This document shows, piece after piece, positions 28,781 through 51,343 of a stretch of 53,909 bases of DNA. The stretch spans positions 1 through 53,909 of the IMG/VR virus record IMGVR_UViG_3300048597_000276, one strand, 5' to 3'. How positions within the stretch are numbered: the first letter of the stretch is position 1; every line of letters begins with the position of its first letter. The DNA is from a virus. Taxonomy: Duplodnaviria > Caudoviricetes. The notes under the pieces are model-generated. The model was not told the origin of the DNA and searched no databases. It was given only the letters and a program-made list of their open reading frames with translations. Made by a program: the position numbers and the translations under genes.

Positions 28781-28797
28781 CTATACTGCTAGTATAG
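28781..28797 (+). promoter_or_regulatory. early promoter/operator repeat, copy 1
   Basis: CTATACTGCTAGTATAG, perfect 7-bp inverted repeat. Confidence 0.85.
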
Positions 28798-28834
28798 CAG
28801 GCGTAACCAAGAATCCTTCCGCAGGAGTCCGCAA

Positions 28835-29530
28835 ATGGACGCAGCCGTGATGACCGACGCCGATGCAGTCAAGGTGCTGCTGGCCAAGGTCGACCAGCTC
28901 CCCGCCGACAAGCAGGGCTTCGCCCGCGACTTGGTGAAGGGCTACTACCGCTACGGCAACTGGACCGAGAAGCAGGCCCGCTGGGGCCACCGCCTGGCGC
29001 ACCTGGCCAACGGCGAGACGCCGGTCGAGCTGCCCAAGGTCGAGAACCTCGCCGGCCTCGTCGAGATGTTCGACCGGGCGGCGGCAAAGACCAAGTGGCC
29101 GAAGCTCACCTTCGACGAGAGCGCCGCCGGCGTGCCGCTGCAGCTCGGCCGCGCCGGGCCGAACGCCGGGCAGCCGGGCTCGGTGAACTGCACCGACGGC
29201 GGCCGCTACGGGTCGAACCGCTGGTACGGGCGGGTCGAGCGTAGCGGGACCTTCGTCCCCTCCAACGACTGCCCGGCTGAGCTGATCGAGTTCCTCAAGC
29301 TGCTGGCCGGCGACACCGCCAACGTGGCGGCGATGTACGGGAAGCGCACCGGCTGCTGCTGCGCCTGCAACACGCCGCTGACCGACGCCCGCTCGGTCGA
29401 GATCGGCTACGGGCCGGTCTGCGCGAAGAAGTTCGGGTGGCCCTACCCGACCAAGGCCGAGTTCGAGGGCCGCCCCGGGAAGAAGAAGCGGAAGGGAGGT
29501 GGTGACGCCCAGCTGTCCCTCGCGGCCTGA
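28835..29530 (+). CDS. DUF6011-like zinc-binding protein
   Basis: C-terminal GCCCACNTPLTDARSVEIGYGPVC. Confidence 0.75.
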   Translation: MDAAVMTDADAVKVLLAKVDQLPADKQGFARDLVKGYYRYGNWTEKQARWGHRLAHLANGETPVELPKVENLAGLVEMFDRAAAKTKWPKLTFDESAAGVPLQLGRAGPNAGQPGSVNCTDGGRYGSNRWYGRVERSGTFVPSNDCPAELIEFLKLLAGDTANVAAMYGKRTGCCCACNTPLTDARSVEIGYGPVCAKKFGWPYPTKAEFEGRPGKKKRKGGGDAQLSLAA

Positions 29531-29696
29531 TGCGGGCCGCGCGACCCCGAAGGATGGAGGCCATCATGTAACCGATCCGGGAACGCGGGCCGCTCACTCG
29601 TGCGGACGTAGTGCATCCGGCCCGCGCCTTCCCCCTGCAACCGCCCTACGCGGGCTGTTCCAGGGCGATGGTGCCCACTAGACCAGGAGATTTGCG

Positions 29697-30083
29697 ATGC
29701 GATCCATTCTGCTGGCTGCCACGGCAGCCATGGCCGTCATCGGCGTCGCCCAGGCGGCGTCGCCGAACCCCGAGTGCCAGCCCTGGCTCGACATGCGCGC
29801 CGCGGTCGGCAACGAGCTCGAGCGCGTGCTGTGGAGTGGCCGGCTCGAGGACGGGTCCGAGATCCTCATCACCGTGCGCCTCGACGAGGCCGGCGGCTAC
29901 GGCGACACCTTCACGGTCGTCACCAAGCAGGACCGGACCCAGGTCAACGCCGAGGCCTGCATGCTGATGCGCGGCACGACCAACCGGCTGAGCGAGACCT
30001 TCGGCGGTCCCCCGGGCCCGCCGCCGGCACCCGCCGTCGCCCCGGCCGTGATCGAGCCGCCCACCTTCACCCTGCCGGGCTGA
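29697..30083 (+). CDS. secreted hypothetical protein
   Basis: AGGAG RBS; signal peptide ending AQA. Confidence 0.7.
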   Translation: MRSILLAATAAMAVIGVAQAASPNPECQPWLDMRAAVGNELERVLWSGRLEDGSEILITVRLDEAGGYGDTFTVVTKQDRTQVNAEACMLMRGTTNRLSETFGGPPGPPPAPAVAPAVIEPPTFTLPG

Positions 30084-30091
30084 TGCCCTAC

Positions 30092-30119
30092 TTGACCAGC
30101 GGCGCTAGACGGATAGGCT
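30092..30119 (+). promoter_or_regulatory. sigma70-like promoter containing AGCGGCGCT palindrome
   Basis: TTGACC-N16-TAGGCT; palindrome also at 32746 and 37066. Confidence 0.55.
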
Positions 30120-30151
30120 AGCGTCGCCACCCTTCCACAAGGAGACCGAAG

Positions 30152-30490
30152 ATGGATGCTGCCGCGCAGCGCGCATGCGAAGCCCGGTTGGGCGAGTTCC
30201 AGCGCCATATCCGCGACCTGATCGTCGCGCATCTGGCCAAGCACGCCGACCTCCATATCGACACCGTGCGCTGCACGGTGACCAGGGGACCGGCCTGGGA
30301 CAAAGACCAGCTGGCGCAGGTCGCGTCCGAGATCTGCGTCGGCTTGGCCGTCGAGGCGGGCCGCGCGATCGCGTCCAACGTCGCCATCGATTCCGTGCCC
30401 GCCTGCCTGCAGTCGGCAGTCCGGTCCATGGGTGCCGGCGTCGCCGAGGTCCTGGAGGAGCGCATGGCAACGGAGGCCGGCCATGGCTGA
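30152..30490 (+). CDS. hypothetical protein
   Basis: Conserved leader CCTTCCACAAGGAGA. Confidence 0.65.
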   Translation: MDAAAQRACEARLGEFQRHIRDLIVAHLAKHADLHIDTVRCTVTRGPAWDKDQLAQVASEICVGLAVEAGRAIASNVAIDSVPACLQSAVRSMGAGVAEVLEERMATEAGHG

Positions 30491-30815
30491 GCAGATGACG
30501 GCAAAGAAGGTCCAGCCGCGTCCCGACGGGGATACCTTCGAGCGCACGAAGGCGCTGAGCGCCAAGCTGCACGAATTCATGGTCGACTGGTTCGCGGAGC
30601 AGGGGCTCGGCGCCGAGATCCCCGAGCGCGACCGCGCCAAGCTGACCGACGCGCAGATCGCGGCGACCTTCGCCCTGCTGAGTGAGGTCGGCTATCTGTT
30701 CGGCACCATGGGGTTCTCGATGGACGTCGTGCGGAAGATAGCCCTGCCGGTGATCGCGCACGCGCACGCCGAAGTGACCCGCCGCGCCGAGGCCTTGGAG
30801 GCGTCCGATGGATAG
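30483..30815 (+). CDS. hypothetical protein
   Basis: GGAGG RBS; overlaps both neighbours. Confidence 0.65.
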   Translation: MAEQMTAKKVQPRPDGDTFERTKALSAKLHEFMVDWFAEQGLGAEIPERDRAKLTDAQIAATFALLSEVGYLFGTMGFSMDVVRKIALPVIAHAHAEVTRRAEALEASDG

Positions 30816-32586
30816 CCCGAACACGCTGGATCCGCTGGTCCGCTCGGTGCCGTTCCGCACGCTCGAGGCCGGCCCGAACCCGCGCCAGCACGACAAGGCC
30901 TACCTCAAGACCCTGGCCGCCAGCATCAAGGCGCTGGGCCTCTTGCAGCCGCTCGGCGTCGTGCCGATCGACGGCGGCAAGCGGGGCCAGGTCCGCTACG
31001 GCAACGGCCGGCTCGCGGCCCTGAAGCTGCTCAAGACCAAGCCCGAGACGCCGATCCCGATCGTGCTGGTGCGCGACGACGACGAGGCCATGGTCCAGGC
31101 CGCGGCCCTGGCCGAGAACCGCGTGCGCGCACCGATGAACCCGCTGGAGGAGTGCGATGCGTTCTGCGCCCTGATCGACCAGGGCAAGAGCGTGGACGAG
31201 GTCGCGGCGTGGTTCGCAGTCACCGACCGGTTCGTGCGCCAGCGCCTCCAGCTCCGCCAGCTGGCGCCCGCGTTCCGGTCGCTCGTCGTCGCCGGCGAGA
31301 TCACGCTCGACCTCGCGGGCTCGCTGGCCATCCTCCCGGCCGAGCGGCAGGCCAAGGTGCTCGCCGACGCGAAGCAGCGCGGCTGGAAGCCGGGCGGCAA
31401 GGGCGACTACAGCAGCTTCCCGGACTGGCTGATCCACAACGCGATCCGTGATCGCCAAGTCGAGGCGAAGCACGCTCTGTTCGACGTCGAGGCCGCGGGC
31501 ATCAGGATCGACCGCGACCTGTTCGACGACAAGGACGAGGGCAAGGTCCTGGCCGAGGACGTGGAGCGGTTCCTGGCGCTCCAGACCGAGGCCGCGAAGG
31601 CGAAGGGGCCGGCCGTGGCCGAGAAGAACGGCTGTGCCGCCTGGATATGGGACGACGACATCGAAGATCAGCTGTGGACGCTGGGCTACCGCTACGTCCC
31701 CAGGGACAAGGACGGCAACCTGAAGATCGAGCCCGGGCACGAGCTCGTCGCCGTCGGCGATCTTCTGTCGACCGGCGAGCCGCGATGGCTGCTCCAGCAG
31801 CGGCCGATCGGCGGCAAGAAGCCCAAGCCTGACGATGATGATGACGAGGATCGCGAGCGCGATCCGCTCCGCGACTACGCCGAGCGCCACGCCGACCGGG
31901 ACAAGCCCGAGGACCAGGAGAAGGTCGGCCAGTCGCTGGAGAACGCGATCCGCGAGGTCCAGGCGCTGATCGCCGCCGGGCAGCTGCTCGCGGATCCGAC
32001 GCTGGCGCTGCGGCTGGCGATCGTCCAGGTCATCAAGGCCGGTCGGTACCGGTACGCCGCGCACCTGGGCAGCATCGTGCCTGGGCACCCGAGCGTGGCC
32101 GCGGAATCGGTGCGGCAGGCGTTCAAGGTGCTGTCCGACCTGGGCGGGTCGAAGCTGTGCCAGGGCGCTGCGGGCGACGCGAAGGCCTACGGGTCCGAGG
32201 CGCGGAACCTGCACTCGGACCTGATCCCCGCCCGGCTGTACGAGGGCGTGATGGCGGCCGACGAGAGCCAGCTGCCGCAACTGCTCGCGGCCGCGATGGT
32301 GCTGGCGATGGACCCGTGCGGCAGCCTCGTGCAGGCCGTGCGCAAGCACAGCACCGTGCCCGAGGGCAAGTTCTACTGCCTGGGCGAGTACGAGCTGGGC
32401 AAGCTGACCAAGGACCAGCTGCTCGAGCAGGCCAAGGCGGCGGGGCTCGAGGGTGTGGACGCCAAGACCAGAAAGGAGGTCGTCAAGGCGATCATGGCGA
32501 AGGGTCTGGCGGCGCGCGACGCCGGTAGCGAGGCGCCGATCCTGCCGATCCTCGCCAAGGCCAGGAACCGCACCGGGGACTGGTGA
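30808..32586 (+). CDS. long ParB/Srx-domain protein (plasmid/ICE type)
   Basis: NPR, LAASIKALGLLQPLGV, GNGRLAAL, LAENRVRAPMNPLEE, HTH. Confidence 0.85.
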   Translation: MDSPNTLDPLVRSVPFRTLEAGPNPRQHDKAYLKTLAASIKALGLLQPLGVVPIDGGKRGQVRYGNGRLAALKLLKTKPETPIPIVLVRDDDEAMVQAAALAENRVRAPMNPLEECDAFCALIDQGKSVDEVAAWFAVTDRFVRQRLQLRQLAPAFRSLVVAGEITLDLAGSLAILPAERQAKVLADAKQRGWKPGGKGDYSSFPDWLIHNAIRDRQVEAKHALFDVEAAGIRIDRDLFDDKDEGKVLAEDVERFLALQTEAAKAKGPAVAEKNGCAAWIWDDDIEDQLWTLGYRYVPRDKDGNLKIEPGHELVAVGDLLSTGEPRWLLQQRPIGGKKPKPDDDDDEDRERDPLRDYAERHADRDKPEDQEKVGQSLENAIREVQALIAAGQLLADPTLALRLAIVQVIKAGRYRYAAHLGSIVPGHPSVAAESVRQAFKVLSDLGGSKLCQGAAGDAKAYGSEARNLHSDLIPARLYEGVMAADESQLPQLLAAAMVLAMDPCGSLVQAVRKHSTVPEGKFYCLGEYELGKLTKDQLLEQAKAAGLEGVDAKTRKEVVKAIMAKGLAARDAGSEAPILPILAKARNRTGDW

Positions 32587-32592
32587 AGGTGG

Positions 32593-32621
32593 TTGACCGG
32601 CAGTCTAGCACCGCCTATGTC
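32593..32621 (+). promoter_or_regulatory. promoter of the candidate antisense sRNA
   Basis: TTGACC-N17-TATGTC. Confidence 0.6.
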
Positions 32622-32626
32622 AAGGT

Positions 32627-32730
32627 TTCTTCGAGGGTACGGCTCACGCCGTTCTCTCTCTTGTGGAAGGAAGGGCCGTTTCCGGCCCTAATTCGGGGCC
32701 GGCCTCGCGAGGGGCTGGCCCTTTCTTTTT
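32627..32730 (+). ncRNA. candidate multi-target antisense sRNA (anti-RBS of early genes)
   Basis: Hairpin 32639-32652, unpaired TCTCTCTCTTGTGGAAGGA 32653-32671, hairpin 32672-32689, terminator 32695-32730; the core is complementary to ~18 early-gene leaders. Confidence 0.72.
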
Positions 32731-32802
32731 GCGCCCGACTTGTCCAGCGGCGCTGGTCGGTCGGTGTATCACTTCCCAACCGCGCACGAAGGAGTAGCGC
32801 AC

Positions 32803-33147
32803 ATGCCGAAGCATCCTGAACCGCAGGCCGAGGCGACCGACGATCCGGTCGTGATCCAGCTCGGCGATCCCGATGCGATCCCGACCACGTTCAAGATCCA
32901 GCTCCCCAATGGCGAGGACATCACCCCCACCGTCCTGGCCGAGCTGCAGACGGCGGCGCACCAGATGGCCGGCAGTCGGGGGCAGGAAGGCCGCGCGGCT
33001 CTGCGCGAGATCGGAACGCAGTTGAACGACATTGGCGGGCTGCCGCTGATGCAGGCCGCCTGCTACCGGGTGAAGGAGCTGTGCGGGCGCGAGGCGTTCG
33101 CGCAAGTCCAGTACGCCTGGGACGGCATCGGGGAATGGCGGCCGTGA
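32803..33147 (+). CDS. hypothetical protein
   Basis: AAGGAG RBS; ends AWDGIGEW. Confidence 0.7.
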   Translation: MPKHPEPQAEATDDPVVIQLGDPDAIPTTFKIQLPNGEDITPTVLAELQTAAHQMAGSRGQEGRAALREIGTQLNDIGGLPLMQAACYRVKELCGREAFAQVQYAWDGIGEWRP

Positions 33148-33356
33148 GGCGGCGCTGCTGCTCGCCGGTGGTCGACCGGCTGTCGCGGTTGCCGGCCCGG
33201 CAGCTCGGCCAGCTCGCCGACCGCACCATCGCCCAGGCACGGACCGTGGAGCGGCGCGACGGCGGCGGGCCGGCCTACCACCCCGACGACATGGCCCGGC
33301 TGCGCACCGTGGGACGCGCCATAGTCGCCAAGATACGCGGCGACTGTTGCGATTGA
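33144..33356 (+). CDS. hypothetical protein
   Basis: GTGA overlap with the upstream stop. Confidence 0.45.
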   Translation: MRRRCCSPVVDRLSRLPARQLGQLADRTIAQARTVERRDGGGPAYHPDDMARLRTVGRAIVAKIRGDCCD

Positions 33357-33420
33357 CCTGACTACTGGGCGGGCGCTGGCCTTCACTGGCGCCCGCTCAT
33401 TCTGCACTTGCATAACTCCA

Positions 33421-33437
33421 CTAACCTGCTAGTATAG
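33421..33437 (+). promoter_or_regulatory. early promoter/operator repeat, copy 2
   Basis: TTGCAT-N16-TAGTAT; CTAACCTGCTAGTATAG; hairpin 33367-33398 upstream. Confidence 0.85.
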
Positions 33438-33474
33438 CAGCACTAACCAATGAACCTTCCGCAGGAGAAACGAC

Positions 33475-34212
33475 ATGGCCGACAGAGCCAGCATCTTGAA
33501 CAAGCTGCGCGCCCTGCGCAGCAAGACCGTCGACAACGGCTGCACCGAGGCCGAGGCGATCGCCGCGGCCGAGAAGGTCGAGGCGCTGCTGCGCGAGTAC
33601 GCGATCAGCCGCGACGAGCTCGACCAGCGCGACTTCCAGGAAGCCGCCTACCGCGCGGCCGACTTCAAGCGCGACCACCGTATCCGTCACCGCAGCCTGT
33701 GGCTGGTGATGCAATCGGTCGCCGAACTCTGCGAGTGCAAGTCCTGGTGGCCGACGAAGGAAGGCGGGCAGCACGGCCTGGTCGCCCGCTTCTTCGGCGA
33801 GGAGCAGGACGTCGACATGGCCGTCTACCTGATGGCCGTGATCGAGAAGGCGATCGAGAACGAATGGTTCGTGTTCTCGTTCGGCGACCCGAAGGCCCAC
33901 CAGACCAGCTTCACCGACGGCTGCGCCTACCGCATCCACGAGCGGCTGCGCGAGTTGCGGCTGCACACCGAGCAGTTCGTTCGCGCCGCCGGCAAGGGCC
34001 TCGTCGTCCAGACCAAGGCCATGGTGCGCGCGCGCAAGCTCGAGGAAGCCGGCGTCAAGATCAGGACGGTCCGCGTCGGGATGAACCAGGGCACATCGTT
34101 CCAGTCGGGCTACGCGGCCGGCAACAACGTGGCCTTCCACCAGGGCGTGCGCCACGACGGCAAGGCGCGCCCCAACCATTCGGCCGTGCCGCTCCGCCTG
34201 GGCCACGGCTGA
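33475..34212 (+). CDS. DUF2786-like protein
   Basis: ILNKLRALRSKTVDNGCTEAEAIAAAEK...SFTDG...GYAAG. Confidence 0.75.
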   Translation: MADRASILNKLRALRSKTVDNGCTEAEAIAAAEKVEALLREYAISRDELDQRDFQEAAYRAADFKRDHRIRHRSLWLVMQSVAELCECKSWWPTKEGGQHGLVARFFGEEQDVDMAVYLMAVIEKAIENEWFVFSFGDPKAHQTSFTDGCAYRIHERLRELRLHTEQFVRAAGKGLVVQTKAMVRARKLEEAGVKIRTVRVGMNQGTSFQSGYAAGNNVAFHQGVRHDGKARPNHSAVPLRLGHG

Positions 34213-34412: not shown

Positions 34413-34465
34413 GTTTCGACCGGGGCGGGCATCGGGCCCGCCCCACCTTCCGCAGGAGAGAAACG

Positions 34466-34702
34466 ATGCAACTGTACCCCGCGACGGACACCGTCGCCCA
34501 GGAGCACGTCGAGCGGCTGCGCGCCGCCGCGATGCACGACCAGGCCTGGGACATCGAGCAGCTCGCCATCCTGGCGCGCGATCTCCTGGTCGCCTGCCGC
34601 GCCGCGCACCTGCAGGCCCGCCAGAGCTGCGCCGATGCGGTCGACATTGTGACCCAGGTCCTGGCCAAGCACGAGCTGCTGCCGGCCGAGCAGGAGGGCT
34701 GA
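34466..34702 (+). CDS. hypothetical protein
   Basis: Conserved leader at 34446. Confidence 0.65.
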   Translation: MQLYPATDTVAQEHVERLRAAAMHDQAWDIEQLAILARDLLVACRAAHLQARQSCADAVDIVTQVLAKHELLPAEQEG

Positions 34703-37001: not shown

Positions 37002-37019
37002 TTCTCCCTGCGCCGACTT

Positions 37020-37054
37020 GGCCGGGGCCAATATTCGGCCCCGGCTGCTCTTTT
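37020..37054 (+). terminator. intrinsic terminator
   Basis: GGCCGGGGCC-AATATTC-GGCCCCGGCT followed by CTCTTTT. Confidence 0.65.
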
Positions 37055-37072: not shown

Positions 37073-37089
37073 CTATACTGATAGTCTAT
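37073..37089 (+). promoter_or_regulatory. early promoter/operator repeat, copy 3
   Basis: CTATACTGATAGTCTAT. Confidence 0.75.
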
Positions 37090-37127
37090 CCTTTGTAAAC
37101 CAATAAACCTTCCGCAGGACGACGAAG

Positions 37128-39045: not shown

Positions 39046-39108
39046 TAATCGAGCCTGCATGACTTGGCCGGGGCTGCGGCCCCGGTATTTTCTGCTGGTC
39101 AGACTGCG

Positions 39109-39125
39109 CTAAACTGATAGTATAG
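39109..39125 (+). promoter_or_regulatory. early promoter/operator repeat, copy 4
   Basis: TGGTCA-N16-TAGTAT; CTAAACTGATAGTATAG; terminator hairpin 39068-39091 upstream. Confidence 0.8.
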
Positions 39126-39163
39126 TGAGCGTGAACAAGAACACCTTCCACGGAACCAAGACG

Positions 39164-41470: not shown

Positions 41471-41487
41471 CTATACTGCTAGTATAG
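41471..41487 (+). promoter_or_regulatory. early promoter/operator repeat, copy 5
   Basis: TGGACT-N16-TAGTAT; perfect CTATACTGCTAGTATAG. Confidence 0.85.
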
Positions 41488-41518
41488 CGTCATAACAATC
41501 TTCCGCAGGACGACGACG

Positions 41519-42436
41519 ATGACCGAGATCCGCACGCTGCCCCTGGGCCAAGTCCACCGCAATGTCGACCAGCCCCGGACCGACTTCCCGAAGGACCATA
41601 TCGAGGCGCTGGCCGCTTCGATCCGCGAGCGCGGGCTGCTCCAGCCGATCACTGTCCGCCGCCTCGCCGACGACCGGTTCGAGATCGTGGCCGGTGAGTG
41701 CCGGTGGCGCGCCCACCAGCTCCTCGGCGCCGCGACGATCGATGCCCGCATCGTCGACATGGACGAGAGCGAGCGGGACCTGAACGCGATCGTCGAGAAC
41801 CTCCAGCGCCGCGATGTCCACCCGCTCGAGGAAGCCCGCGCCTACCAGCGGATGCTCGACAAGGGCTGGGCGGTCGACGCCCTGGCGAAGTCGGTCGGCA
41901 CCACCGAGAACCGGGTGCTTGAGCGGATCGGGCTGCTCAAGATGCGGCCCGAGTACCAGTCGCTGTTCCAGACCGGGCAGATCGACCGGAACATGGCCCG
42001 CGAGCTCGCGAGCCTGCCCCCGCACGCCCAGGACGCCCTGTTCCAGCTGATCCGCAAGGGCGAGTTCGCCAACTCCAACGGCCGCCAGTGCGATGGCTCC
42101 ACCCGGCTCCGCGAGGTCGCGAACCAGATGCGCCACGACCTGGCGCAAGGCTCGATGTTCGACCTGCCGCCCGAGCCCACCGAGGAGGAGAAGTCGAAGG
42201 CCGCAGCCATCCAGCGGAAGATCGACCAGCTCTGCGGGATGCTGAACCAGGGGTTTGACGACGGCGACATCGCGATCACCCGCAAGGTCGATCCGAACCT
42301 CGCCGCCACCTACGCCGACAAGCTGGCCCTGATCGGGCGGCATGTCGCCATGCTGGAGCGGGCCCTCCGCACCAGCGCCACCGTGGCACAGGCGCAGCTC
42401 GCGCTGGTGTCCGCAACCGAGAAGGCTGACGTTTGA
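41519..42436 (+). CDS. ParB/Spo0J-family protein
   Basis: QPRTDF, LAASIRERGLLQPITVR, IVAGECRWRA, ENLQRRDVHPLEEA, HTH. Confidence 0.9.
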   Translation: MTEIRTLPLGQVHRNVDQPRTDFPKDHIEALAASIRERGLLQPITVRRLADDRFEIVAGECRWRAHQLLGAATIDARIVDMDESERDLNAIVENLQRRDVHPLEEARAYQRMLDKGWAVDALAKSVGTTENRVLERIGLLKMRPEYQSLFQTGQIDRNMARELASLPPHAQDALFQLIRKGEFANSNGRQCDGSTRLREVANQMRHDLAQGSMFDLPPEPTEEEKSKAAAIQRKIDQLCGMLNQGFDDGDIAITRKVDPNLAATYADKLALIGRHVAMLERALRTSATVAQAQLALVSATEKADV

Positions 42437-43116: not shown

Positions 43117-43911
43117 CTACTTCTGGGCCCTGGGGTTCGACCGGTCGACCTTGATCGACATGGTGTCGATCTTGCCCCTGGTATCGAGGGCCGTGCGTTT
43201 GAGGGAAACGTGGGCGCCCCAGGTCTCCTTGAGGAGCCGGGTCGTTGCCACCCACTTGTCGGTCGTGATGAGGCCGACGTTGCCGCCCTGGCCGCCGAAG
43301 ATCATCCCGCAGTCGAAGTAGAAGCGGCTGTCCATGTAGCCGAACCGGTCCTCGAGCAGGGTCCGGATCGACAGGTCGATCGCGTTCCGGCCTGCGAACC
43401 TGGGGTCCATCTTCCGCCGGCGGGCCGGGCCCATGATGCCGAAGACGTTGGACAGGATCGGCTTCACCGTGGCCGGCTTCATGCCGATGTCGAACAGGGT
43501 CGAGTTGTTGGTGCGGGAGAAGCAGAACGTCGATGAGCCGACGTCGTGGGCCGCGCGGGCGGCGTTCTCGATGATCTGCAGGATGTCGGCCGGATCGGTG
43601 ATCCGCCCGCCGCGGCCGCTGCGCCGCCAGCCGGTCATCACGCTGACGTGGTGAAAGTCGTCGTCGACGAACACCAGGATCTCGTTGGCGACGTTGTCCA
43701 TGATCCAGTTGCAGACCACGGCGAACCCGTCCATCGGCGGATGGAGGAGCAGCTGGTCGGAAGGCACGAACGGGGCGTAGGCGGCCAGCTCCCGCTCGTC
43801 GATGCAGACCATGGCCGTGGGCAGCAGCTCGCGAATCCGCGGCATGTTGTGCGGTCGCCGGCGGGAGGGCACGACGATGCCGATGTCCAGCTCCGGGGCG
43901 TAGTCGGTCAC
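43117..43911 (-). CDS. GT-A glycosyltransferase, TAGT/GREB1-like
   Basis: GTG start overlapping the upstream stop; IVVPSRRRP...E...Y...CNWIMD...VFVDDD...IDLS...GGN. Confidence 0.72.
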   Translation of the reverse strand: MTDYAPELDIGIVVPSRRRPHNMPRIRELLPTAMVCIDERELAAYAPFVPSDQLLLHPPMDGFAVVCNWIMDNVANEILVFVDDDFHHVSVMTGWRRSGRGGRITDPADILQIIENAARAAHDVGSSTFCFSRTNNSTLFDIGMKPATVKPILSNVFGIMGPARRRKMDPRFAGRNAIDLSIRTLLEDRFGYMDSRFYFDCGMIFGGQGGNVGLITTDKWVATTRLLKETWGAHVSLKRTALDTRGKIDTMSIKVDRSNPRAQK

Positions 43912-44597
43912 GGCTTGGCGCCCGCCTCGGGCTCGCCCAGCGCCTCGAGCAGGACCTCGGCGCGGATGCCGCGGCAGGTACCGAGGTTGCCCTTCCTGCG
44001 GACCGGCTTGAGGCCCAGGCGATCGCAGAGCGTGTTCCACTCCCGCGTCGTGGTGGCGAGCACGACGAGGTAGTCGTAGTGCTCGTGCGGGGCCAGCTCC
44101 ATGCCTGGCACGAAGTGCTCGGTCTTTTCCTTGGGTGCGGCCTCGATCTCGTCGACCAGCTTGTCCATGGCCTTGGCCAGGTCGGCGTGCAGCTTCCGCA
44201 GGTCGGCATAGTCGCCCATGTCGACCGAGCTGAGCAGGCTGGCCAGGGCCTCGGCGTCGGGGATGGCGAGGTCGCCCAGGGGATCGAAGGTGGTGAGCAC
44301 CTTGTCGGCCTCCTCGTCGTTGAGGTCGACGATCAGCACCGGGATCTCGGCGTTGGGATCGTTCTCCGCGCGCATGTGGCCGTCGAGGAGCTCCAGCTCG
44401 CCGGTGGGCAGCTCGCGGGCCAGCACGGCGCCGACGAAGCCGACGTCGTCGAGGATCGCGCGGAGCACGGACTTCTGCCCTTCGGGGTGGCGGCGCCAGT
44501 TCTTGGCGTTGGGCTTGAGGTCGCCGGCGCGGACGCGGCGCAGCTCCTTCACCCGGTCCCGGATTGCCGGCTTGGCCGCCGTCTTCTTCGCTGCCAT
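43908..44597 (-). CDS. ParB N-terminal-like protein
   Basis: LKPNAKNWRRHP...VGFVGAV...LLDGHMR...EEADKVLTTFDPL. Confidence 0.8.
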   Translation of the reverse strand: MAAKKTAAKPAIRDRVKELRRVRAGDLKPNAKNWRRHPEGQKSVLRAILDDVGFVGAVLARELPTGELELLDGHMRAENDPNAEIPVLIVDLNDEEADKVLTTFDPLGDLAIPDAEALASLLSSVDMGDYADLRKLHADLAKAMDKLVDEIEAAPKEKTEHFVPGMELAPHEHYDYLVVLATTTREWNTLCDRLGLKPVRRKGNLGTCRGIRAEVLLEALGEPEAGAKP

Positions 44598-44786
44598 GGA
44601 TGAGCTCCGCTAGACTGATGGTTTGCGTGTAGCCCACCCGGCCGCGACGATCCAGGGCGCCGACGAGCCTACCATTACCCGGGCGGCTGCAGACCTTGAG
44701 GCCACAGGCAAAACCTATGCTGGCAGCTCGCATAGGTATGCAGGCCCATTACTGGCGGTACGCACTTTTCCATTTGCATCCTCCTG

Positions 44787-44803
44787 CTAAACTGCTAGTA
44801 TAG
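44787..44803 (+). promoter_or_regulatory. early promoter/operator repeat, copy 6
   Basis: TTGCAT-N16-TAGTAT; CTAAACTGCTAGTATAG. Confidence 0.85.
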
Positions 44804-44842
44804 CAGATGTAAGCAAGAACACCTTCCACAAGGTCGACGACG

Positions 44843-45277: not shown

Positions 45278-45634
45278 ATGGACGGCTCCCTGTTCGGCCA
45301 CCTGCCGGTGGCCCAGCGGCCGCGCGAGCATGGCGGGGCCGGCTGGCTGATCCGGGCCCAGGAGCTCGCCCTGGTCCTGGTCGACGTGAGGCACTGCCCC
45401 GACTGCAACGCCTGCGGCACCGACGAGCACCTGCGGACCTGCCGCCGGTGCCAGGGCCGCGGGCTGCTCAAGGTCCCGCCGGCCGAGTGGGTCGAGGCGG
45501 GCCGCCGGTTCCGCGCCGAGCGCAAGCGTCGCGGCGAGCGCGACCACGATGTCGCCGCCCGCATGGGCTGCGCCGCCAGCGATGTCCGCGCCATGGAGCG
45601 CGGCGAGCTGCCCCTTCCAAGCATGCTGATCTGA
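45278..45634 (+). CDS. zinc-finger + Xre-like HTH protein
   Basis: CPDCNACG...CRRCQGRG; FRAERKRRG...VAARMG...VRAMERG. Confidence 0.65.
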   Translation: MDGSLFGHLPVAQRPREHGGAGWLIRAQELALVLVDVRHCPDCNACGTDEHLRTCRRCQGRGLLKVPPAEWVEAGRRFRAERKRRGERDHDVAARMGCAASDVRAMERGELPLPSMLI

Positions 45635-46133: not shown

Positions 46134-46188
46134 CCCCTTTCCCCCGGCCTGGGCATGGGGCCTGGGCCTGTTCCACAGGAGAGAGACG

Positions 46189-46419
46189 ATGGCTGCCAAC
46201 CTGAAGCGGGTCGCCCCGCCGCCGCAGCTGACCAAGGTCGCGACGGCGGAGTTCCGTCGGGTGAAGGAGACGAAGGGCACCTTCGTGTTCGCCGAGCTCG
46301 ACGAGGACGGCGAGGTCGCGACCGAGGGCTACGTGATCGGCCAGCTCTACGTCCGCAAGACGGCGCTGAAGGGCGAAGCGCCCGAGCGCCTGATCGTCAC
46401 CGTGGAGTCCGTGGCATGA
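46189..46419 (+). CDS. hypothetical protein
   Basis: Leader TTCCACAGGAGAGAGA; KETKGT..F.E...IGQLYVRK motif. Confidence 0.7.
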   Translation: MAANLKRVAPPPQLTKVATAEFRRVKETKGTFVFAELDEDGEVATEGYVIGQLYVRKTALKGEAPERLIVTVESVA

Positions 46420-46688
46420 AGCTCGCCGACCTCCAGCGCGTGAAGGAGCTGAGCGAGGAGCTGAGCTACCTGAAGGCCCACCGACAGACGGCGGTCGAGG
46501 CCAAGCACTTCAGCTTCGGCGTCCGGTTCGTTCCGGGTCCGCTCAAGACCTGGGACACCGTCGTCACTCCCGCCGAGACGATCGAGTGTGCCCGCGCCCT
46601 GGCGCTGAGCATCATCGACGGGCGGATGCTCGCGATCGGGCTCGAGCTGCAGGAGCTCGGCGTGGAGGTCCCCGATGGCCAAGCCTAG
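46416..46688 (+). CDS. hypothetical protein
   Basis: ATGA coupling. Confidence 0.6.
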   Translation: MKLADLQRVKELSEELSYLKAHRQTAVEAKHFSFGVRFVPGPLKTWDTVVTPAETIECARALALSIIDGRMLAIGLELQELGVEVPDGQA

Positions 46689-46917
46689 CCGCCGCCACTA
46701 CGACACGGCGGTCCGGGTCAGCGCGCTCCTTCGGGAGCGCCACCCACCCGAGATCGTCGGCGCCTACGGCGCGCTGCCCGACTGGACCGAGGACCAGCTC
46801 GAGGCGTGGCGCGACGCCGACGCCTGCCGGCAGGTGATCGAGGCCTGGGAGCGCACGACCAGCTGCCCGTCGACCGCGCAGTACCGCGTGACCCAGGCCG
46901 GGGAGCGGTACGCATGA
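46675..46917 (+). CDS. hypothetical protein
   Basis: GGAGG RBS. Confidence 0.55.
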   Translation: MAKPSRRHYDTAVRVSALLRERHPPEIVGAYGALPDWTEDQLEAWRDADACRQVIEAWERTTSCPSTAQYRVTQAGERYA

Positions 46918-47219
46918 TCTACCGTCCCGAGGCTGAGGCAATCGAGAAGGGGTGCCCGATGGGCATGTCATCTCACGTGGGGGCCTACGTCCGCTGCGTT
47001 GGCTCCAAGTGCATGGCTTGGCAGTGGGCGCCCGGTCTGCCTCGCACGCGGTTCGATGGGCCGCGCGACATGCTCACCGGCGAGCCGCCGCGCCCCGATG
47101 CCGTGCCGGCCAGCTGGACCTGGGAGTTCGACGAGGAGGAAGGCCGGGGCTACTGGCTCGAGCCCGAGGCCGAGGCGCAGAAGCGATGGCGCGGCCGTTG
47201 CGGGATGGTGCCCCGGTGA
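46914..47219 (+). CDS. Cys-rich phage hypothetical protein
   Basis: CP...CVGSKCMAWQW...GRCG. Confidence 0.65.
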   Translation: MIYRPEAEAIEKGCPMGMSSHVGAYVRCVGSKCMAWQWAPGLPRTRFDGPRDMLTGEPPRPDAVPASWTWEFDEEEGRGYWLEPEAEAQKRWRGRCGMVPR

Positions 47220-47665
47220 CCCGGGGCTTTGCCGCGGTGGCACTCTGGCGGCCGAAGTGCGACGGCAACGTGGGCGGGGCGATTCGCGCCGCCTCGTGCT
47301 TCAACGCGCGGCTGGTGGTCGTGGGCTCGCCGCGGCCGACGATGCGGGGCCGGATCGAGCGGACCGATCCGCGCTCCTCGCACCGGCACATGCCTGTGCT
47401 GTTCGAGCAGGACGTGCTCAAGCCCGTGCCGCACGAGGCGAAGGTGATCGCGGTCGAGATCCTCGCCGGCGCCCGCCCGCTGCCGGAGTTCGAGCATCCC
47501 GAGGTCGGGTACTACCTGTTCGGACCCGAGGACGGGTCGCTGCCGGCCGAGCTGTGCAGCGTCGCCGACATGCGGGTGGCGATCCCGACCGTCGGGTGCC
47601 TGAACCTCGCGATGGCGGTCAACGTCGTCCTCTACGACCGGGTCGCGAAGCGGGGGCTGCTGTGA
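47216..47665 (+). CDS. SpoU/TrmH-family (SPOUT) RNA methyltransferase
   Basis: PK..GNVGGAIRAA, YLFGPEDGSL, IP...CLNLAMAVNVVLYDR. Confidence 0.88.
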   Translation: MTRGFAAVALWRPKCDGNVGGAIRAASCFNARLVVVGSPRPTMRGRIERTDPRSSHRHMPVLFEQDVLKPVPHEAKVIAVEILAGARPLPEFEHPEVGYYLFGPEDGSLPAELCSVADMRVAIPTVGCLNLAMAVNVVLYDRVAKRGLL

Positions 47666-48192
47666 CCCGCACGGCGGCCTGGAAGGCGCGGCGCGCGCTC
47701 GAGCGGCCGTTCCAGTGCTCGCGCTGCGACGGGCGCTACAAGAGCCAGCTCGACCTCGACCAGCATGTGCAGGCCGTGCACGAGCGCAAGCGGGCGATCC
47801 GTCCACCGCTCTGCCCGTACTGTGGCGAGACGTCGGTGCTGCTGCGGTCCAGCGGTGAGCTCTACCGCGGTCGCGACTACGGGCCGGCATGGCTCTGCCG
47901 CCCGTGTCAGGCGTGGGTCGGGTGCCACCCTGGCGGCATCGTGCCGCTGGGCCGGCTGGCCGATGCCGAGCTGCGCAAGGCGAAGATGGCGGCCCATGGG
48001 GCGTTCGATCCGCTGTGGAAGCGGGTGAAGGAGCGCGGCGGCGACGAGGCGCGGGGCGCCAGGGTGCGGGCCTATGCTTGGCTGGCCGAGCAGATGGGGC
48101 TGACACGCGAGGCGTGCCACATCGGCATGTTCGACGTCGACCAGTGCCGGATGGTCGTGGAGATCTGCACCAAGCCTTACGGTCGCAAGTAG
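47662..48192 (+). CDS. C2H2 + DUF3268-like zinc-finger protein
   Basis: CSRC...HVQAVH; CPYCG...CRPCQAWVGCH...PLGRLADAELR...AH..FDPLW...CHIGMFD. Confidence 0.8.
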   Translation: MTRTAAWKARRALERPFQCSRCDGRYKSQLDLDQHVQAVHERKRAIRPPLCPYCGETSVLLRSSGELYRGRDYGPAWLCRPCQAWVGCHPGGIVPLGRLADAELRKAKMAAHGAFDPLWKRVKERGGDEARGARVRAYAWLAEQMGLTREACHIGMFDVDQCRMVVEICTKPYGRK

Positions 48193-48241
48193 AGCCGTCG
48201 CTTTTACTTGCGGCTGGTCGCTTTCTGCTGGACTAACTCCA

Positions 48242-48258
48242 CTAAACTGCTAGTATAG
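48242..48258 (+). promoter_or_regulatory. early promoter/operator repeat, copy 7
   Basis: TGGACT-N16-TAGTAT; CTAAACTGCTAGTATAG. Confidence 0.85.
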
Positions 48259-48296
48259 CAGAGGTAAGCAAGAACACCTTCCACCGGAGAACCAAG

Positions 48297-48545
48297 ATGA
48301 AGAACGTCATGTCCCCGGCCGCCGCCAGATGGTGGTCCAGCGAGGTCGCGCGCGAGGAACGCGCCAACGACAACTGGTCCTCGCCGGCCGAGCGGCAGGA
48401 GGCTGCCCGGCAGATGGAGGCGGTCGTCGCCTCCTGGATGTCGCCCGAGCGCCGCAAGGGGTTCGAGTGCATGGCGATGCCCGCGATGGTCGAGGCCCAG
48501 CGGATGCGCCGGATGCCGGCGTGGATGCGGCCGAAGGCGGTCTGA
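48297..48545 (+). CDS. hypothetical protein
   Basis: Conserved leader at 48277. Confidence 0.6.
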   Translation: MKNVMSPAAARWWSSEVAREERANDNWSSPAERQEAARQMEAVVASWMSPERRKGFECMAMPAMVEAQRMRRMPAWMRPKAV

Positions 48546-48557
48546 GGAGGGACGAAC

Positions 48558-48782
48558 ATGGACGACAAGAAGCTGGCCGAGTTGCTGCAGGGCTTCGTCG
48601 AGGGCGCGATCCAAGGCTCGCGCGACATGGCCGAGGACGCGGCCGTGCAGCTGAACGAGCAGTTCACCGAGTACGCCGAGGTCGTGAGCTTCGAGGCCGG
48701 CGGCTACCTGACCAACGATCCCGGCTTCGTGCTGCGCGTTGGCGACGACGAGTTCCAGGTCACCGTGATCCGTCGCGCCTGA
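48558..48782 (+). CDS. small acidic protein
   Basis: GAGGAGG RBS; SFEAGGYLT.DPGFVLR..D.EFQVTV motif. Confidence 0.7.
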   Translation: MDDKKLAELLQGFVEGAIQGSRDMAEDAAVQLNEQFTEYAEVVSFEAGGYLTNDPGFVLRVGDDEFQVTVIRRA

Positions 48783-48845
48783 CCTGGGGACAGCGGGGCG
48801 CCAGGACCCGGCGCCCCGCCACCTTCCACCCACTGGAGAGAGCAG

Positions 48846-49244
48846 ATGGCAAAGCTGGTGTTCAACGCCGACCAGGTGGCGGCCGTGGTCCGCGAGGCGC
48901 TCGCGGCGAAGAAGTGGATGTCCTGCTACGGGAAGCCCGGTACAGCCCCGGGCCTGTGGCTGGTCCACGACCAGGGCGTCTACCTGATGTCGAACGCGCT
49001 CGACCGCGACCCGAAGACGGCGCCGCTCGCCTATGCCGCGGGCTGCGATCCGAAGGACGAGGACTGGTGGGAGACCTCGCGCGCGCTGGTCGGCGGCGAC
49101 GACTTCGCCGAGCCGATCGAGATCGACGCCCAGCTGCGCACCGCCGTCGAGCGCGGCCTACGCGGCGCCTTCTCGATCACACTGACCGAGGAGCAGCTCA
49201 CGGTCGACCTCGAGGCCGTCCTGCCGGCGAAGGCCGCGCACTGA
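48846..49244 (+). CDS. DUF3085-like protein
   Basis: LWLVHDQGVYLMSN...YAAGCDP...GGDDFAE. Confidence 0.8.
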   Translation: MAKLVFNADQVAAVVREALAAKKWMSCYGKPGTAPGLWLVHDQGVYLMSNALDRDPKTAPLAYAAGCDPKDEDWWETSRALVGGDDFAEPIEIDAQLRTAVERGLRGAFSITLTEEQLTVDLEAVLPAKAAH

Positions 49245-49513
49245 TGGTCCAGCTCAGCAACCGGCAACGGGCGGCCGCGCGCGCTGCGCTCGGGCTGCCG
49301 AACCCGCAGCGGCGGTCCTATCGCAATCGGTACACGGCGAGCCGCGCAGGTGAAACGCACGAGGTCTGGCGGGGTATGGTCGAGCTCGGGCTGGCAGCCG
49401 AGTCCGCGCCGATCGGCGACAAGTTCGCCATGTTCGTGCTCACGCCGGCCGGCGCCAGGGCGGCGCTCGATCCGGACGAGACCCTCGACCCGGAGGACTT
49501 CCCCGATGGCTGA
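49244..49513 (+). CDS. winged-helix-like hypothetical protein
   Basis: ALGL...SYRNRY...W..MVELGLA...LTPAG. Confidence 0.65.
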   Translation: MVQLSNRQRAAARAALGLPNPQRRSYRNRYTASRAGETHEVWRGMVELGLAAESAPIGDKFAMFVLTPAGARAALDPDETLDPEDFPDG

Positions 49514-49709
49514 GTCCTATCCCTGGCAGGTCGACCGGGAGAAGGCCGAGCGGTTCATCCGGCAGATCGACGTCCTGATGGCCGAGACCGAGCGGACCCT
49601 CGCCAAGCGCCTGCTGCAACGGCAGCGCACGTCGCTCCTGGCTAAGCAGCAGAAACGGCGCGAGCTGATCGCCCGGATCCGCAGCGTCTGGCCCGAGCTG
49701 GAGGCGTAG
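49506..49709 (+). CDS. hypothetical protein
   Basis: GGAGG RBS; overlap with the upstream gene. Confidence 0.55.
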   Translation: MAESYPWQVDREKAERFIRQIDVLMAETERTLAKRLLQRQRTSLLAKQQKRRELIARIRSVWPELEA

Positions 49710-49712
49710 CCC

Positions 49713-50057
49713 ATGCCTGCCGCCGCCCGCTTCATGCTTGAGGTGTCCTGGGGCAACCCGACCACGTCGGCCCCGCAGGGCTTCGAGCGCGTGGAGTGGG
49801 CGGTGTGCGGCTGGGACCGCGCGGCCGACGAGGCGTGGCTCTGGTCGCAGAAGCCGGACTGGTTCGAGCCCGGCTGCGGCTACGCGATGCGCTGGAGTGC
49901 CATCCTGCCGCCGCCGCGCCGGCTGCCGCCCGAGACGAAGGCCCGGATCCGTCGCCGCTCGCTGCGCCGCCGGCTCGAGGCCAAGGTTCCGTTGTTCGCC
50001 GACCAGCTCGAGGAGGCGGAGCTGGCCCGGCGCCCTGGGTACTTCCAGGGCGAGTAG
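49713..50057 (+). CDS. conserved mobile-element hypothetical protein
   Basis: KARIRRRSLRRRLEAKVPLFADQL...RPGYF. Confidence 0.65.
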   Translation: MPAAARFMLEVSWGNPTTSAPQGFERVEWAVCGWDRAADEAWLWSQKPDWFEPGCGYAMRWSAILPPPRRLPPETKARIRRRSLRRRLEAKVPLFADQLEEAELARRPGYFQGE

Positions 50058-50093
50058 CCTCTACCCCTCTATCCTTCCATAAGGGAAAAACCG

Positions 50094-50777
50094 ATGCCCA
50101 AGGGCTCCCCCAGGGCCTCACAGGAGGCCTTTGATCTCACCCCTCCTCCCAACCCCCACAGCTCCGACGATCCGATGCGGCTGCCGCGTCTGCTCGGCGC
50201 GCTGGCCCACATGGGCATGCCTCGGTCCATGCTCGCGGTCCTTGCCGAGCTCGGCCAGGTCGAGGCCGGCGACGGCGCCGACGAGACGCACTGGCTGCAC
50301 GGGCCGCTGGTCGTGCACAGCGCCGGCGGCTGGCACCAGGATCTGCCGCAGTGGGCCAGGCAGCAGGCGATCGCCGAGCGGTGGCTGATCGTGAACGGCG
50401 AGCTGCCCGGGCATCTGGTCGGGCCGGCCGAGCTGCTCTGCGTCATGTACGCCGCCAGCCTGGAGGCGCCGAGGGGCGAGCGGTTCACCGACCTCTACTG
50501 CTGGGCCACCGCGAAGGCGGTCGAGCGGTGGAAGGGCGTCTCGGCCGAGGCGACGCTCAAGGCCGCGGGTGCGCGGGTCAGCGACGCGGACGTGCTCGAG
50601 CCCAAGGGCCGGCTGCACCACGACTACCGGATGCTCGCCGGCGAGATCCGCCGCAAGGTGGCGAACGCCCGGCGCGAGGAGCTGAAGGCCGCGAAGCGTG
50701 AGGCTGTGCCCGAGCCGAAGGCGAAGCCGACGGCGCCGGCGCGGGTCGAGCGCGAGCAGTTCGCGATGTTCGCGTGA
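50094..50777 (+). CDS. hypothetical protein
   Basis: Leader TCCTTCCATAAGGGA; LVGPAE...YAASLEAP...LYCWA. Confidence 0.7.
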   Translation: MPKGSPRASQEAFDLTPPPNPHSSDDPMRLPRLLGALAHMGMPRSMLAVLAELGQVEAGDGADETHWLHGPLVVHSAGGWHQDLPQWARQQAIAERWLIVNGELPGHLVGPAELLCVMYAASLEAPRGERFTDLYCWATAKAVERWKGVSAEATLKAAGARVSDADVLEPKGRLHHDYRMLAGEIRRKVANARREELKAAKREAVPEPKAKPTAPARVEREQFAMFA

Positions 50778-51139
50778 GCTGGCCGTTCCAGGCCGTGGCC
50801 CGTCGCAAGGTCAACGGCGGGCCCAAGGCCACGGCCTCGGACGAGATCACCTGGGCCGGGCTGTGGCGCGAGCGGCGGTGGCTGCTGGTGTCACGGCCGC
50901 GGCTGAACAACCCGCTGGAGAGCTTCGTCACCAGCTCGGGCCACCGGCTGCGCGACAGCTGGGTCGGCTCGAGCGGGCACTGGATCGACCTCGTGGTGAA
51001 GGAGCCCAGAAATCCGAGCGACGACGAGCTCGAGGAGCTGCAGGTCCTGGCCCAGCAGGTCGACTCTCGGCCGGTGCGCGTGCGGCGGTACCAGCGCCGG
51101 GCCGAGCCCTTGACGCCCGATGCTGGACTGTTAGTCTAG
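50774..51139 (+). CDS. hypothetical protein
   Basis: GTGA coupling. Confidence 0.55.
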   Translation: MSWPFQAVARRKVNGGPKATASDEITWAGLWRERRWLLVSRPRLNNPLESFVTSSGHRLRDSWVGSSGHWIDLVVKEPRNPSDDELEELQVLAQQVDSRPVRVRRYQRRAEPLTPDAGLLV

Positions 51140-51142
51140 CTC

Positions 51143-51264
51143 CGCTAATGCGTTGCCCGATGGTGCTGCCGGTTCCGTCCCTTCGCGGGGGAAGATCACC
51201 CGGCAGAACCCGCTCGGAAGCGCGGAAAGAGCCCCGGTGCGCCGTTCACCGGGGCTTTTTCTTT
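51143..51264 (+). ncRNA. candidate structured ncRNA
   Basis: TTGACG-N16-TAGTCT promoter (51110-51137); CTGCCGG/CCGGCAG stem with an inner hairpin; terminator AGCCCCGGTG...CACCGGGGCTTTTT. Confidence 0.55.
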
Positions 51265-51326
51265 GCCCGAACAGTAGAGCGCAGCTCAATACTCGACTGA
51301 GCATATCTTCCTCTTTACTAACTCTG

Positions 51327-51343
51327 CTATACTGCTAGGCTAG
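51327..51343 (+). promoter_or_regulatory. early promoter/operator repeat, copy 8 (degenerate)
   Basis: CTATACTGCTAGGCTAG followed by CAATGAACCTTCCGCAGGAG, as in copy 2. Confidence 0.75.

Follow-up and report, generated by a model that had tools for sequence, protein, structure and literature searches.

The non-structural arm of an uncultured high-GC phage is punctuated by a repeated unit that very probably represents a promoter of the host's housekeeping sigma factor, joined to a common translation leader. The phage is known from IMG/VR record IMGVR_UViG_3300048597_000276, and the window analysed here is that entire record (53,909 bases, linear, CheckV completeness 73%). The unit is built on a 17-mer, CTAWACTGMTAGTATAG, with eight copies starting at 28781, 33421, 37073, 39109, 41471, 44787, 48242 and 51327. 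Each copy carries an extended -10 element overlapped by an inverted repeat, and is followed by a leader with a ribosome-binding site (RBS) and an ATG. Taken as a whole, we somewhat favour a family of extended -10 promoters for the housekeeping sigma factor, arranged as insulated units, with the dyad most likely serving as the site of a regulator.

We searched the window for CTAWACTGMTAGTATAG with up to two mismatches and found eight matches, all on the + strand, against none in 100 dinucleotide-preserving shuffles. Five copies have no mismatch, 33421 has one, and 37073 and 51327 have two. An initial annotation of this DNA, made from the letters alone, had listed these eight copies; its coordinates are exact, and no other matches exist in the whole record. 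A weight matrix built from the eight adds two degenerate copies, at 30105 and at 51123, the latter about 200 nucleotides (nt) upstream of copy 8 (51327). The copies are spaced 2.0-4.6 kb apart and confined to the rightward arm, with none in the leftward structural arm. All eight lie outside the coding frames marked by high third-position GC, and the motif starts 48-56 nt before the ATG of an open reading frame (ORF). Copy 1 (28781) sits in the divergent region that separates the leftward structural arm from the rightward arm, and copy 6 (44787) is divergent from a lone leftward gene (43908-44597). The order within a unit is often a terminator hairpin, a -35-like hexamer, 16 nt, TGnTAG(T/G)(A/C)T, about 17 nt, CCTTCC with the RBS, and ATG. 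The features and their coordinates are collected in Table 1.

Fixed orientation, intergenic position, a TGn plus TAnnnT-type -10, a -35-like hexamer, an upstream terminator and a downstream RBS with ATG together argue that the units are promoters. TGn followed by the hexamer TAG(T/G)(A/C)T is found in all eight copies (that is, TG(C/A)TAG(T/G)(A/C)T), as expected from the extended -10 (TGnTAGTAT) proposed earlier. The hexamer matches four of the six positions of TATAAT, the consensus used by the scan tool. The pattern TGNTAGNNT occurs 11 times, nine of them within copies, against 3.7 ± 1.9 expected. At a constant 16 nt upstream, six of the eight copies have a -35-like hexamer (TTGCAT twice, TGGACT twice, TGGTCA and TTTACT) that matches 3-4 of 6 consensus positions, and the left part of the motif makes up the last nine nt of this spacer. 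With five of six positions matched, the two degenerate copies possess the best -35 hexamers (TTGACC and TTGACG) together with the weakest -10 regions, an inverse relation that fits the trade-off expected of sigma-70 promoters.

Upstream of the promoter, five of the eight copies have a GC-rich hairpin, and three of these hairpins score as intrinsic terminators. The three have T-runs and stand immediately before 28781, 37073 and 39109; the GC hairpins ahead of 33421 and 48242 have weaker T-runs. This agrees with the earlier remark that several copies follow a terminator; 41471, 44787 and 51327 have no convincing upstream hairpin. Between 28 and 48 kb, 17 terminator-like sites were counted, compared with 6.0 ± 2.7 expected. 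Two terminators, 28728-28764 and 32695-32732, share a near-identical stem and tail (GGCC..GGGCTGGCCCTTTCTTTTTG), suggesting that the terminators themselves are repeated units. About 35 nt upstream of terminator 28728-28754, within 28663-28764, the + strand has a promoter-like site, TGGACC-17-TATCAT (9/12), which no + strand gene precedes. This site could yield an RNA of about 60-70 nt with the leader-like GTTCCCCGCAG, or could be due to chance.

Downstream of the motif, an A-rich spacer (about 17 nt, of GTAA..CAAGAA flavour) leads into CCTTCC in all eight copies (TCTTCC in 41471), exactly as first described, and CCTTCC is followed by an RBS of the form (G/A)C(A/G)GGA(G). Three further genes (30152, 34466 and 46189) have the leader without the full motif, and in all 11 leaders CCTTCC stands 13-15 nt from the start codon, which is always ATG. 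A loose leader pattern with up to two mismatches is not enriched in the window (31 matches against 25.2 ± 4.9 expected). When the pattern is tightened and an ATG is required at 6-11 nt, it occurs nine times on the + strand and never on the - strand; the leader is thus specific by its position, not by its count. RNAalifold predicts no base pairs in a consensus structure of the 11 leaders, and on a plain reading the leader would be an open, A-rich initiation region. A cis-acting hairpin in which CCUUCC masks the RBS was also considered and is unsupported, with zero consensus pairs predicted. The two leader-only units, 34420-34468 and 46140-46191, consist of a GC-rich hairpin without a T-run, a CCTTCC or TGTTCC leader, an RBS and an ATG, and may be processing or stabilising elements within operons.

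The 17-mer also has a symmetry that overlaps the promoter. Within it, CTATACT and AGTATAG, separated by 3 nt, pair at 7/7 positions in two of the eight copies (28781 and 41471), at 6/7 in three and at 5/7 in three, while the degenerate copies 51123 and 30105 pair at 6/7 and 5/7, so that all ten copies lie at 5-7/7. A second repeat, CTGCTA-3-TAGCAG, overlaps the first and is complete (6/6) in four of the eight. Both of the inverted repeats reported earlier are therefore real, and both are imperfect in part of the copies. A column comparison shows that the left arm (CTAnAC) is almost invariant, whereas the -35 hexamer and the intervening 7 nt vary. In both degenerate copies position 4 is G and position 14 is C, which is a symmetric change. 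In an exhaustive count of palindromes with perfect 6- or 7-nt arms and 0-5-nt centres, the 7-3-7 dyad is the only one with at least three copies in the 54 kb, one GC-rich 6-mer aside. Sigma-70 does not read the spacer positions covered by the left arm base-specifically. The symmetry is thus conserved beyond what a promoter needs, as would be the case for the operator of a dimeric repressor.

Folded as a single strand, the 17-mer gives weak structures that vary from copy to copy (energies of -1.8 to -8.6 kcal/mol; z-scores between +1.3 and -2.9), and a conserved single-strand hairpin was rejected as weak and inconsistent. Such folds leave an RNA or cruciform role unsupported, and the symmetry is most simply explained by a dimer that recognises the duplex. 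An operator is plausible: conservation is stronger in the left arm than in the -35, and this arm mirrors the one at the -10 within the sole recurrent palindrome. We take the overlapping dyad to be probably functional, and consider it an even call whether it is, most simply, an operator.

The half-site CTANACTG is found 12 times in the window against 1.0 ± 1.0 expected, five of them outside the full copies. Three of these five are identical (CTAGACTG). The one at 44610 lies within the 5' leader of the leftward ParB-like gene, and the site 51636-51652 (-) matches 14 of the 17 motif positions. The extra half-sites may be relics or half-operators.

We propose the following model for the arm. Host RNA polymerase with the housekeeping sigma factor would read the eight copies and the two decayed ones, starting transcription about 7 nt after the hexamer. 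Each promoter would then be followed by a conserved, unstructured 5' untranslated region (UTR) of about 32 nt and an RBS of the type (A/G)GGA(G). In this way the units would divide the rightward arm (28.8-53.9 kb) into about eight separately started, insulated transcription units with matched translation starts. The left arm CTAnACT would be dispensable for sigma-70 recognition, and the dyad spans spacer and -10. Most likely the dyad is the site of a dimeric DNA-binding regulator, which would sit on the -10 and switch all units together. It would act as a repressor if the phage is temperate and as a timing switch if it is lytic. Of the promoter/operator originally suggested, the promoter is well supported by the anatomy of the units and the operator is plausible. 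The distributed repressor regulon built on it is a hypothesis, as no repressor was found in the window.

Several observations weigh against this model. There is no credible -35 in 28781 (ATGCGT) or 37073 (TCCGGT). A generic E. coli-type sigma-70 scan, which needs 9 of 12 positions, flags none of the eight copies, and the host's own consensus may differ. By our own count the copies match 5-8 of 12 consensus positions. Because the generic scan flags no copy, the case for a promoter has to be made from the extended -10, the constancy of the geometry and the context. As for the operator, the dyad is perfect in only two of the eight copies and is broken by an A at position 4 in half. The sequence of the left arm can also be read as TAWACT, which resembles a -10 hexamer, so the arm could be conserved for a reason tied to the promoter. 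Pfam and PHROGs scans of 59 different ORFs recognised no CI, Cro, integrase, sigma factor or polymerase, and about 27% of the genome is absent from the record.

These points lead to a simpler possibility, in which the units are a plain promoter family without a regulator. The 17-mer would then be an extended consensus comparable with the conserved early promoters of other phages, and promoter strength and terminators would provide the control. The dyad would be a by-product, arising from two -10-like hexamers (TAWACT and TAGTAT) or from spacer contacts. All of the promoter features apply to this possibility as well, TAWACT is contained in the left arm, six of the eight dyads are imperfect, and the ORFs scanned include no recognised repressor gene. 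We nevertheless regard it as rather unlikely, although it is the alternative that survives best. It does not account for a left arm that is conserved above the -35 and mirrors the right arm at 5-7 of 7 positions throughout the ten copies, the two degenerate ones showing a matched change to G:C. For a free conserved 7-mer we estimate the probability of a match at 6/7 or better at about 1e-3 (our own estimate, not computed by a tool). The five half-sites outside the copies, with about one expected, also speak against a plain promoter family.

If a regulator does bind the dyad, the window offers two candidates. One is a ParB/Spo0J-type protein of 305 aa encoded at 41519-42436, by the gene that directly follows the perfect palindrome copy at 41471. 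The 17-mers might be bound by this CTPase of the phage, in the manner of the KorB operator OB or of dispersed centromeres, silencing or organising the arm rather than serving as classical repressor operators. The protein carries the full ParB_N and HTH_ParB domains and matches Thermus Spo0J (1vz0) at 5e-30, Noc at about 1e-29 and KorB (8qa8) at 2.3e-12. It contains GECRWRA and ENLQRRDVHPLEEA (GxxRxxA-like and ENLQR...PLEEA), which we take to be the CTP-pocket boxes of ParB. The window has no match to the canonical parS consensus at up to three mismatches, and the 17-mer is its only recurrent palindrome. A precedent is plasmid RK2, where KorA and KorB act at many promoters (McLean et al. 2025, PMC11790492).

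Against this candidate, the half-sites are unlike the canonical parS consensus, the one type of site compared, and the centre of the 17-mer is an odd 3 nt, whereas that consensus has an even length of 16 nt. The window has no recognised ParA, the cognate site of the protein may be in the 27% of the genome that the record lacks, and phages often carry ParB-like genes for other reasons. A single-protein search returned no relatives of the gene. We therefore consider it unlikely that the 17-mers are loading sites of the ParB CTPase with KorB-like silencing of each promoter, perhaps combined with blocking of the leaders by an inverted-leader RNA. If this were true, ParB and the inverted-leader RNA would form a two-layer lock, transcriptional and translational, drawn from one repeated unit.

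A weaker candidate binder is the zinc-ribbon/XRE-type helix-turn-helix (HTH) protein at 45278-45634. Its HTH_31 match (E 2.9e-5, 24.7 bits) stays below the Pfam cut-off of 27. In the ESM Atlas it reaches 0.90 to HTH_3/HTH_31 and MqsA-like clusters, a value that 4-10% of shuffled proteins reach too.

The non-structural arm encodes three ParB-fold genes, 30808-32586 (+), 41519-42436 (+) and 43908-44597 (-), two of which have ParB_N and HTH_ParB domains. The third, 43908-44597, has no Pfam ParB domain; its only matches are to PHROGs, namely partition proteins of the ParB-like kind and the N-terminal portion of a family of DNA methyltransferases. A DGHMR-type motif occurs in its product, and no other gene of the arm clearly runs leftward.

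The inverted leader is an inverted copy of the hairpin-plus-leader unit at 32645-32675, between the stop of the 592-aa ParB-like gene (30808-32586) and a strong terminator at 32695-32722. A + strand RNA of this segment would be antisense to all 11 leaders if G.U pairs are counted. The duplexes it would form with them have a mean energy of -28.05 kcal/mol, compared with -17.6 ± 3.1 for random 51-nt windows of the contig, of which 3 of 600 reach as low a value. The element could be either a relic of an inverted cassette or an anti-leader carried in a 3' UTR. A gene start on the minus strand behind it was rejected, as the ORF has only 10 codons. The small RNA (sRNA) lock assumed in the initial annotation may correspond to this copy, which provides a basis for it in sequence alone.

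A further possibility is that the units are mainly recombination substrates, that is, mobile promoter-terminator cassettes that shuffle ORFans, with the palindrome as a hot spot. The layout matches that of the early promoter stem-loops (PeSLs) of T4-type phages, for which shuffling has been proposed (Arbiol et al. 2010, PMC2839356; Comeau et al. 2014, PMC4122927). Only 7 of the 40 right-arm ORFs scanned reach the Pfam cut-off. Decayed, partial and inverted fragments are found at 32601(-), 32645-32675, 40742, 44610 and 51645(-). On the other hand, pairs of units are only 39-72% identical (ungapped, -30 to +40), and their longest shared exact runs are 7-21 nt, with 7-16 nt in most pairs. The unit called a conserved stretch of about 55 bp in the earlier description thus consists of conserved blocks and is not conserved throughout. 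Low identity with kept blocks suggests that the 17-mer and the leader are held by selection on separate blocks and do not stem from recent duplication, and such short exact runs make the units modest substrates for homologous recombination. Nor were any relatives found that could show breakpoints. Shuffling as the main role is therefore improbable, while cassette shuffling as a side effect, limited by the short homology, is reasonable.

Our search for relatives covered exact patterns and loci related by their portal. Exact patterns gave 18 matches in IMG/VR for the motif, 2 for motif plus leader and 81 for leader plus ATG, with single matches per contig, and 49 single matches in a metagenome collection. 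All were judged to be chance because their context and GC are unrelated; the collections scanned may leave out the window's own record. The portal-relative loci comprise 80 viral and 7 genome loci, whose best segments do not exceed 42% identity. At 14 bits or more the weight matrix has one match among these 87 loci, in a locus of 39% GC. By eye, no comparable unit was seen among repeated 11-mers (loci of at least 8 kb) or AT islands (loci of at least 9 kb and at least 60% GC). Thus, neither the exact-pattern scans nor the portal-relative loci revealed a carrier of the unit. One distant portal relative (IMGVR_UViG_3300017963_000011, 32% identical in the best segment) has, at 535-20364, eight copies in 21 kb of another 14-bp palindrome, (T/G)GTAGCGCTAC(C/G/A)(A/C), not obviously linked to promoters.

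Least probable of all is that the units are promoters for a polymerase or sigma factor encoded by the phage, or elements that act in the RNA, for instance as hairpins of read-through transcripts: a sharply conserved 17-mer near the predicted start does recall the promoters of single-subunit polymerases, and about 27% of the genome is unseen, but no ORF scanned has a polymerase or sigma domain, both the -35-like hexamers and their trade-off with the -10 are consistent with host polymerase, hairpin folding is weak and varies from copy to copy, and no Rfam family was found.

How the unit compares with known phage and plasmid elements is considered next. Host LexA, CtrA or sigma-54 sites, N4-type hairpin promoters and integron attC sites were also considered as resemblances. 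PeSLs combine a stem-loop terminator with a sigma-70-like early promoter in ORFan-rich regions, and shuffling between them has been proposed (PMC2839356; the shuffling model also in PMC4122927). The present unit is likewise a composite of terminator and sigma-70-like promoter before small, mostly ORFan cassettes in a non-core region, in one orientation. The repeated promoter-plus-terminator layout in an ORFan-rich region is found here with hairpins at five of eight copies and Pfam matches for seven of 40 ORFs. There is no sequence relation, and the present phage is a high-GC phage with a tape measure, a tail tube and a Mu-type portal, not a T4-like myovirus. Its units have a palindrome over the -10, run into a conserved translation leader, and share exact runs of at most 21 nt.

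The SAS and ESAS elements of Cluster K mycobacteriophages are asymmetric, contain an RBS and share one orientation. They stand a few nt ahead of non-structural genes, whose start codon is mostly ATG; a subset has upstream inverted repeats, and their function is unproven (Pope et al. 2011, PMC3203893). By analogy, the leader described here also places an RBS before the ATG of non-structural genes in one orientation (11/11 ATG). It differs in sequence, in having CCTTCC 5' of the RBS and in having a single 17-mer over the -10, whereas the upstream repeats of Cluster K are two of 17 bp with a spacer. Cluster O mycobacteriophages carry 17-bp 7-3-7 palindromes as well as predicted SigA promoters (Cresawn et al. 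2015, PMC4351075). Those palindromes resemble ours in their 7-nt arms, 3-nt centre, many copies and mostly intergenic or near-start positions. However, they number more than 30, occur in either orientation and are not part of the promoters described, while here there are 8-10 in one orientation, fused with the -10.

In RK2, KorA and KorB control many promoters, OA overlaps the -10, and KorB, of the ParB family, is a global silencer (PMC11790492). As in RK2, one mobile element here has many promoters with a palindromic site at or near the core, and encodes a ParB-type protein matching KorB. RK2 is a plasmid and not a phage, its sites are of unrelated sequence, and our window has no recognised KorA-like partner. 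Dispersed sites for a single repressor are also known from temperate actinophages. In phiC31, conserved inverted repeats are repressor sites spread over the genome. Stoperators are 13-14-bp sites oriented with transcription, within and between genes. Those of Cluster A phages are asymmetric, bound by a monomer, and stop elongation (PMC9283540). As with stoperators and the phiC31 repeats, many copies of a short site would let a single repressor silence the arm. Unlike stoperators, the present sites are dyads, exclusively intergenic and fused to the -10, and no repressor or lysogeny module was found in this window. On the strength of these comparisons, the architecture is a new example of a layout already known from other phages, here in an orphan lineage; the comparators are unrelated in sequence, and the phage falls in none of their groups.

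If confirmed, the unit would be a self-contained regulatory grammar of promoter, candidate operator and leader, reused about 8-11 times in an uncultured high-GC phage lineage. It would provide a set of promoters and RBSs for a host not yet identified, and a test bed for one regulator gating a whole arm of ORFan cassettes. It would also be a second, unrelated case of the PeSL-type terminator-promoter layout outside T4-like phages, which would suggest a general solution for carrying and exchanging accessory genes. Nothing here overturns current ideas.

Table 1 Features of the repeated unit and its genomic context (positions in the window)
Feature	Position	Strand	Details
Leftward arm products	1-28,646	-	Tail fibre, tail proteins, tail tube, major head protein, head protease, large terminase (family scans)
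Tape measure	5336-10582		Leftward arm (family scans)
Mu-type portal fused to MuF	24007-26634		Leftward arm (family scans)
Terminator upstream of copy 1	28728-28754	+	11 pairs, 9 GC; tail TTCTTTTTGG
Copy 1	28781-28797	+	CTATACTGCTAGTATAG; 0 mismatches; dyad 7/7, second dyad 6/6; -10 28790-28795; leader 28815-28826; ATG 28835
Degenerate copy	30105-30121	+	CTAGACGGATAGGCTAG; weight matrix 14.9 bits; -35 TTGACC; no TG; leader CCTTCCACAAGG at 30131; ATG 30152
Inverted copy of hairpin-plus-leader unit	32645-32675 (context 32587-32722)		+ strand RNA antisense to leaders
Copy 2	33421-33437	+	GC hairpin ~33366-33399; -35-like TTGCAT 33408-33413; leader 33455-33466; ATG 33475 (DUF2786/DUF7168 protein)
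Leader-only copy	34446-34468	+	GC hairpin, then CCTTCCGCAGGAG; ATG 34466; no promoter motif
Copy 3	37073-37089	+	2 mismatches; terminator 37019-37047; poor -35; leader 37108-37119; ATG 37128
Copy 4	39109-39125	+	Terminator 39067-39086; -35-like TGGTCA; leader 39144-39155; ATG 39164
Copy 5	41471-41487	+	Perfect 7-3-7 palindrome; -35-like TGGACT; short leader, TCTTCC at 41499; ATG 41519 (ParB-type gene)
ParB/Spo0J-type protein, 305 aa	41519-42436	+	ParB_N + HTH_ParB; putative binder
Copy 6	44787-44803	+	-35-like TTGCAT; leader 44822-44833; ATG 44843
Zinc-ribbon/XRE-type HTH protein, 118 aa	45278-45634	+	CxxC...CxxC; XRE-like C-terminus; weak candidate binder
Leader-only copy	46169-46191	+	GC hairpin, then TGTTCCACAGGAG; ATG 46189; no promoter motif
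Copy 7	48242-48258	+	Hairpin ~48180-48216; -35-like TGGACT; leader 48277-48288; ATG 48297
Degenerate copy	51123-51139	+	CTGGACTGTTAGTCTAG; weight matrix 14.3 bits; -35 TTGACG; TGn; no CCTTCC leader
Copy 8	51327-51343	+	2 mismatches; -35-like TTTACT; -10 TAGGCT; leader 51361-51372; ATG 51380
Extra half-sites CTANACTG	2442, 40742, 44610	+	Outside full copies
Extra half-sites CTANACTG	32601, 51645	-	Outside full copies

The record has a GC content of about 65-73% throughout. Coding frames were called from third-position GC and family scans, which assign bases 1-28,646 to a leftward structural arm and bases 28,835-53,909 to a non-structural arm that runs rightward except for the gene at 43908-44597. 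The right-arm families that reach the Pfam cut-off are DUF6011, two ParB-type proteins, DUF2786/DUF7168, an MgsA_C-like protein, a SpoU methylase and DUF3085. When the segment 28-52 kb was compared by megablast with 50,697 records of cultured phages, no nucleotide match was obtained, and among 5.8 billion proteins searched the closest portal relative is 46% identical. Since neither an integrase nor a host flank was found within the 54-kb window, and the window contains no tRNA and no Rfam family, the term prophage used in the initial annotation is without support. Its label of early region for the rightward arm would follow from gene content.

Two other genes encode modification enzymes. In the structural arm, 15515-18541 (-) encodes a 1008-aa protein with glycosyltransferase (GT1/GT4 and GT2) and S-adenosylmethionine-methyltransferase domains, which may modify the virion or the host surface. 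In the non-structural arm, 46952-47665 (+) encodes a SpoU-type RNA 2'-O-methyltransferase domain.

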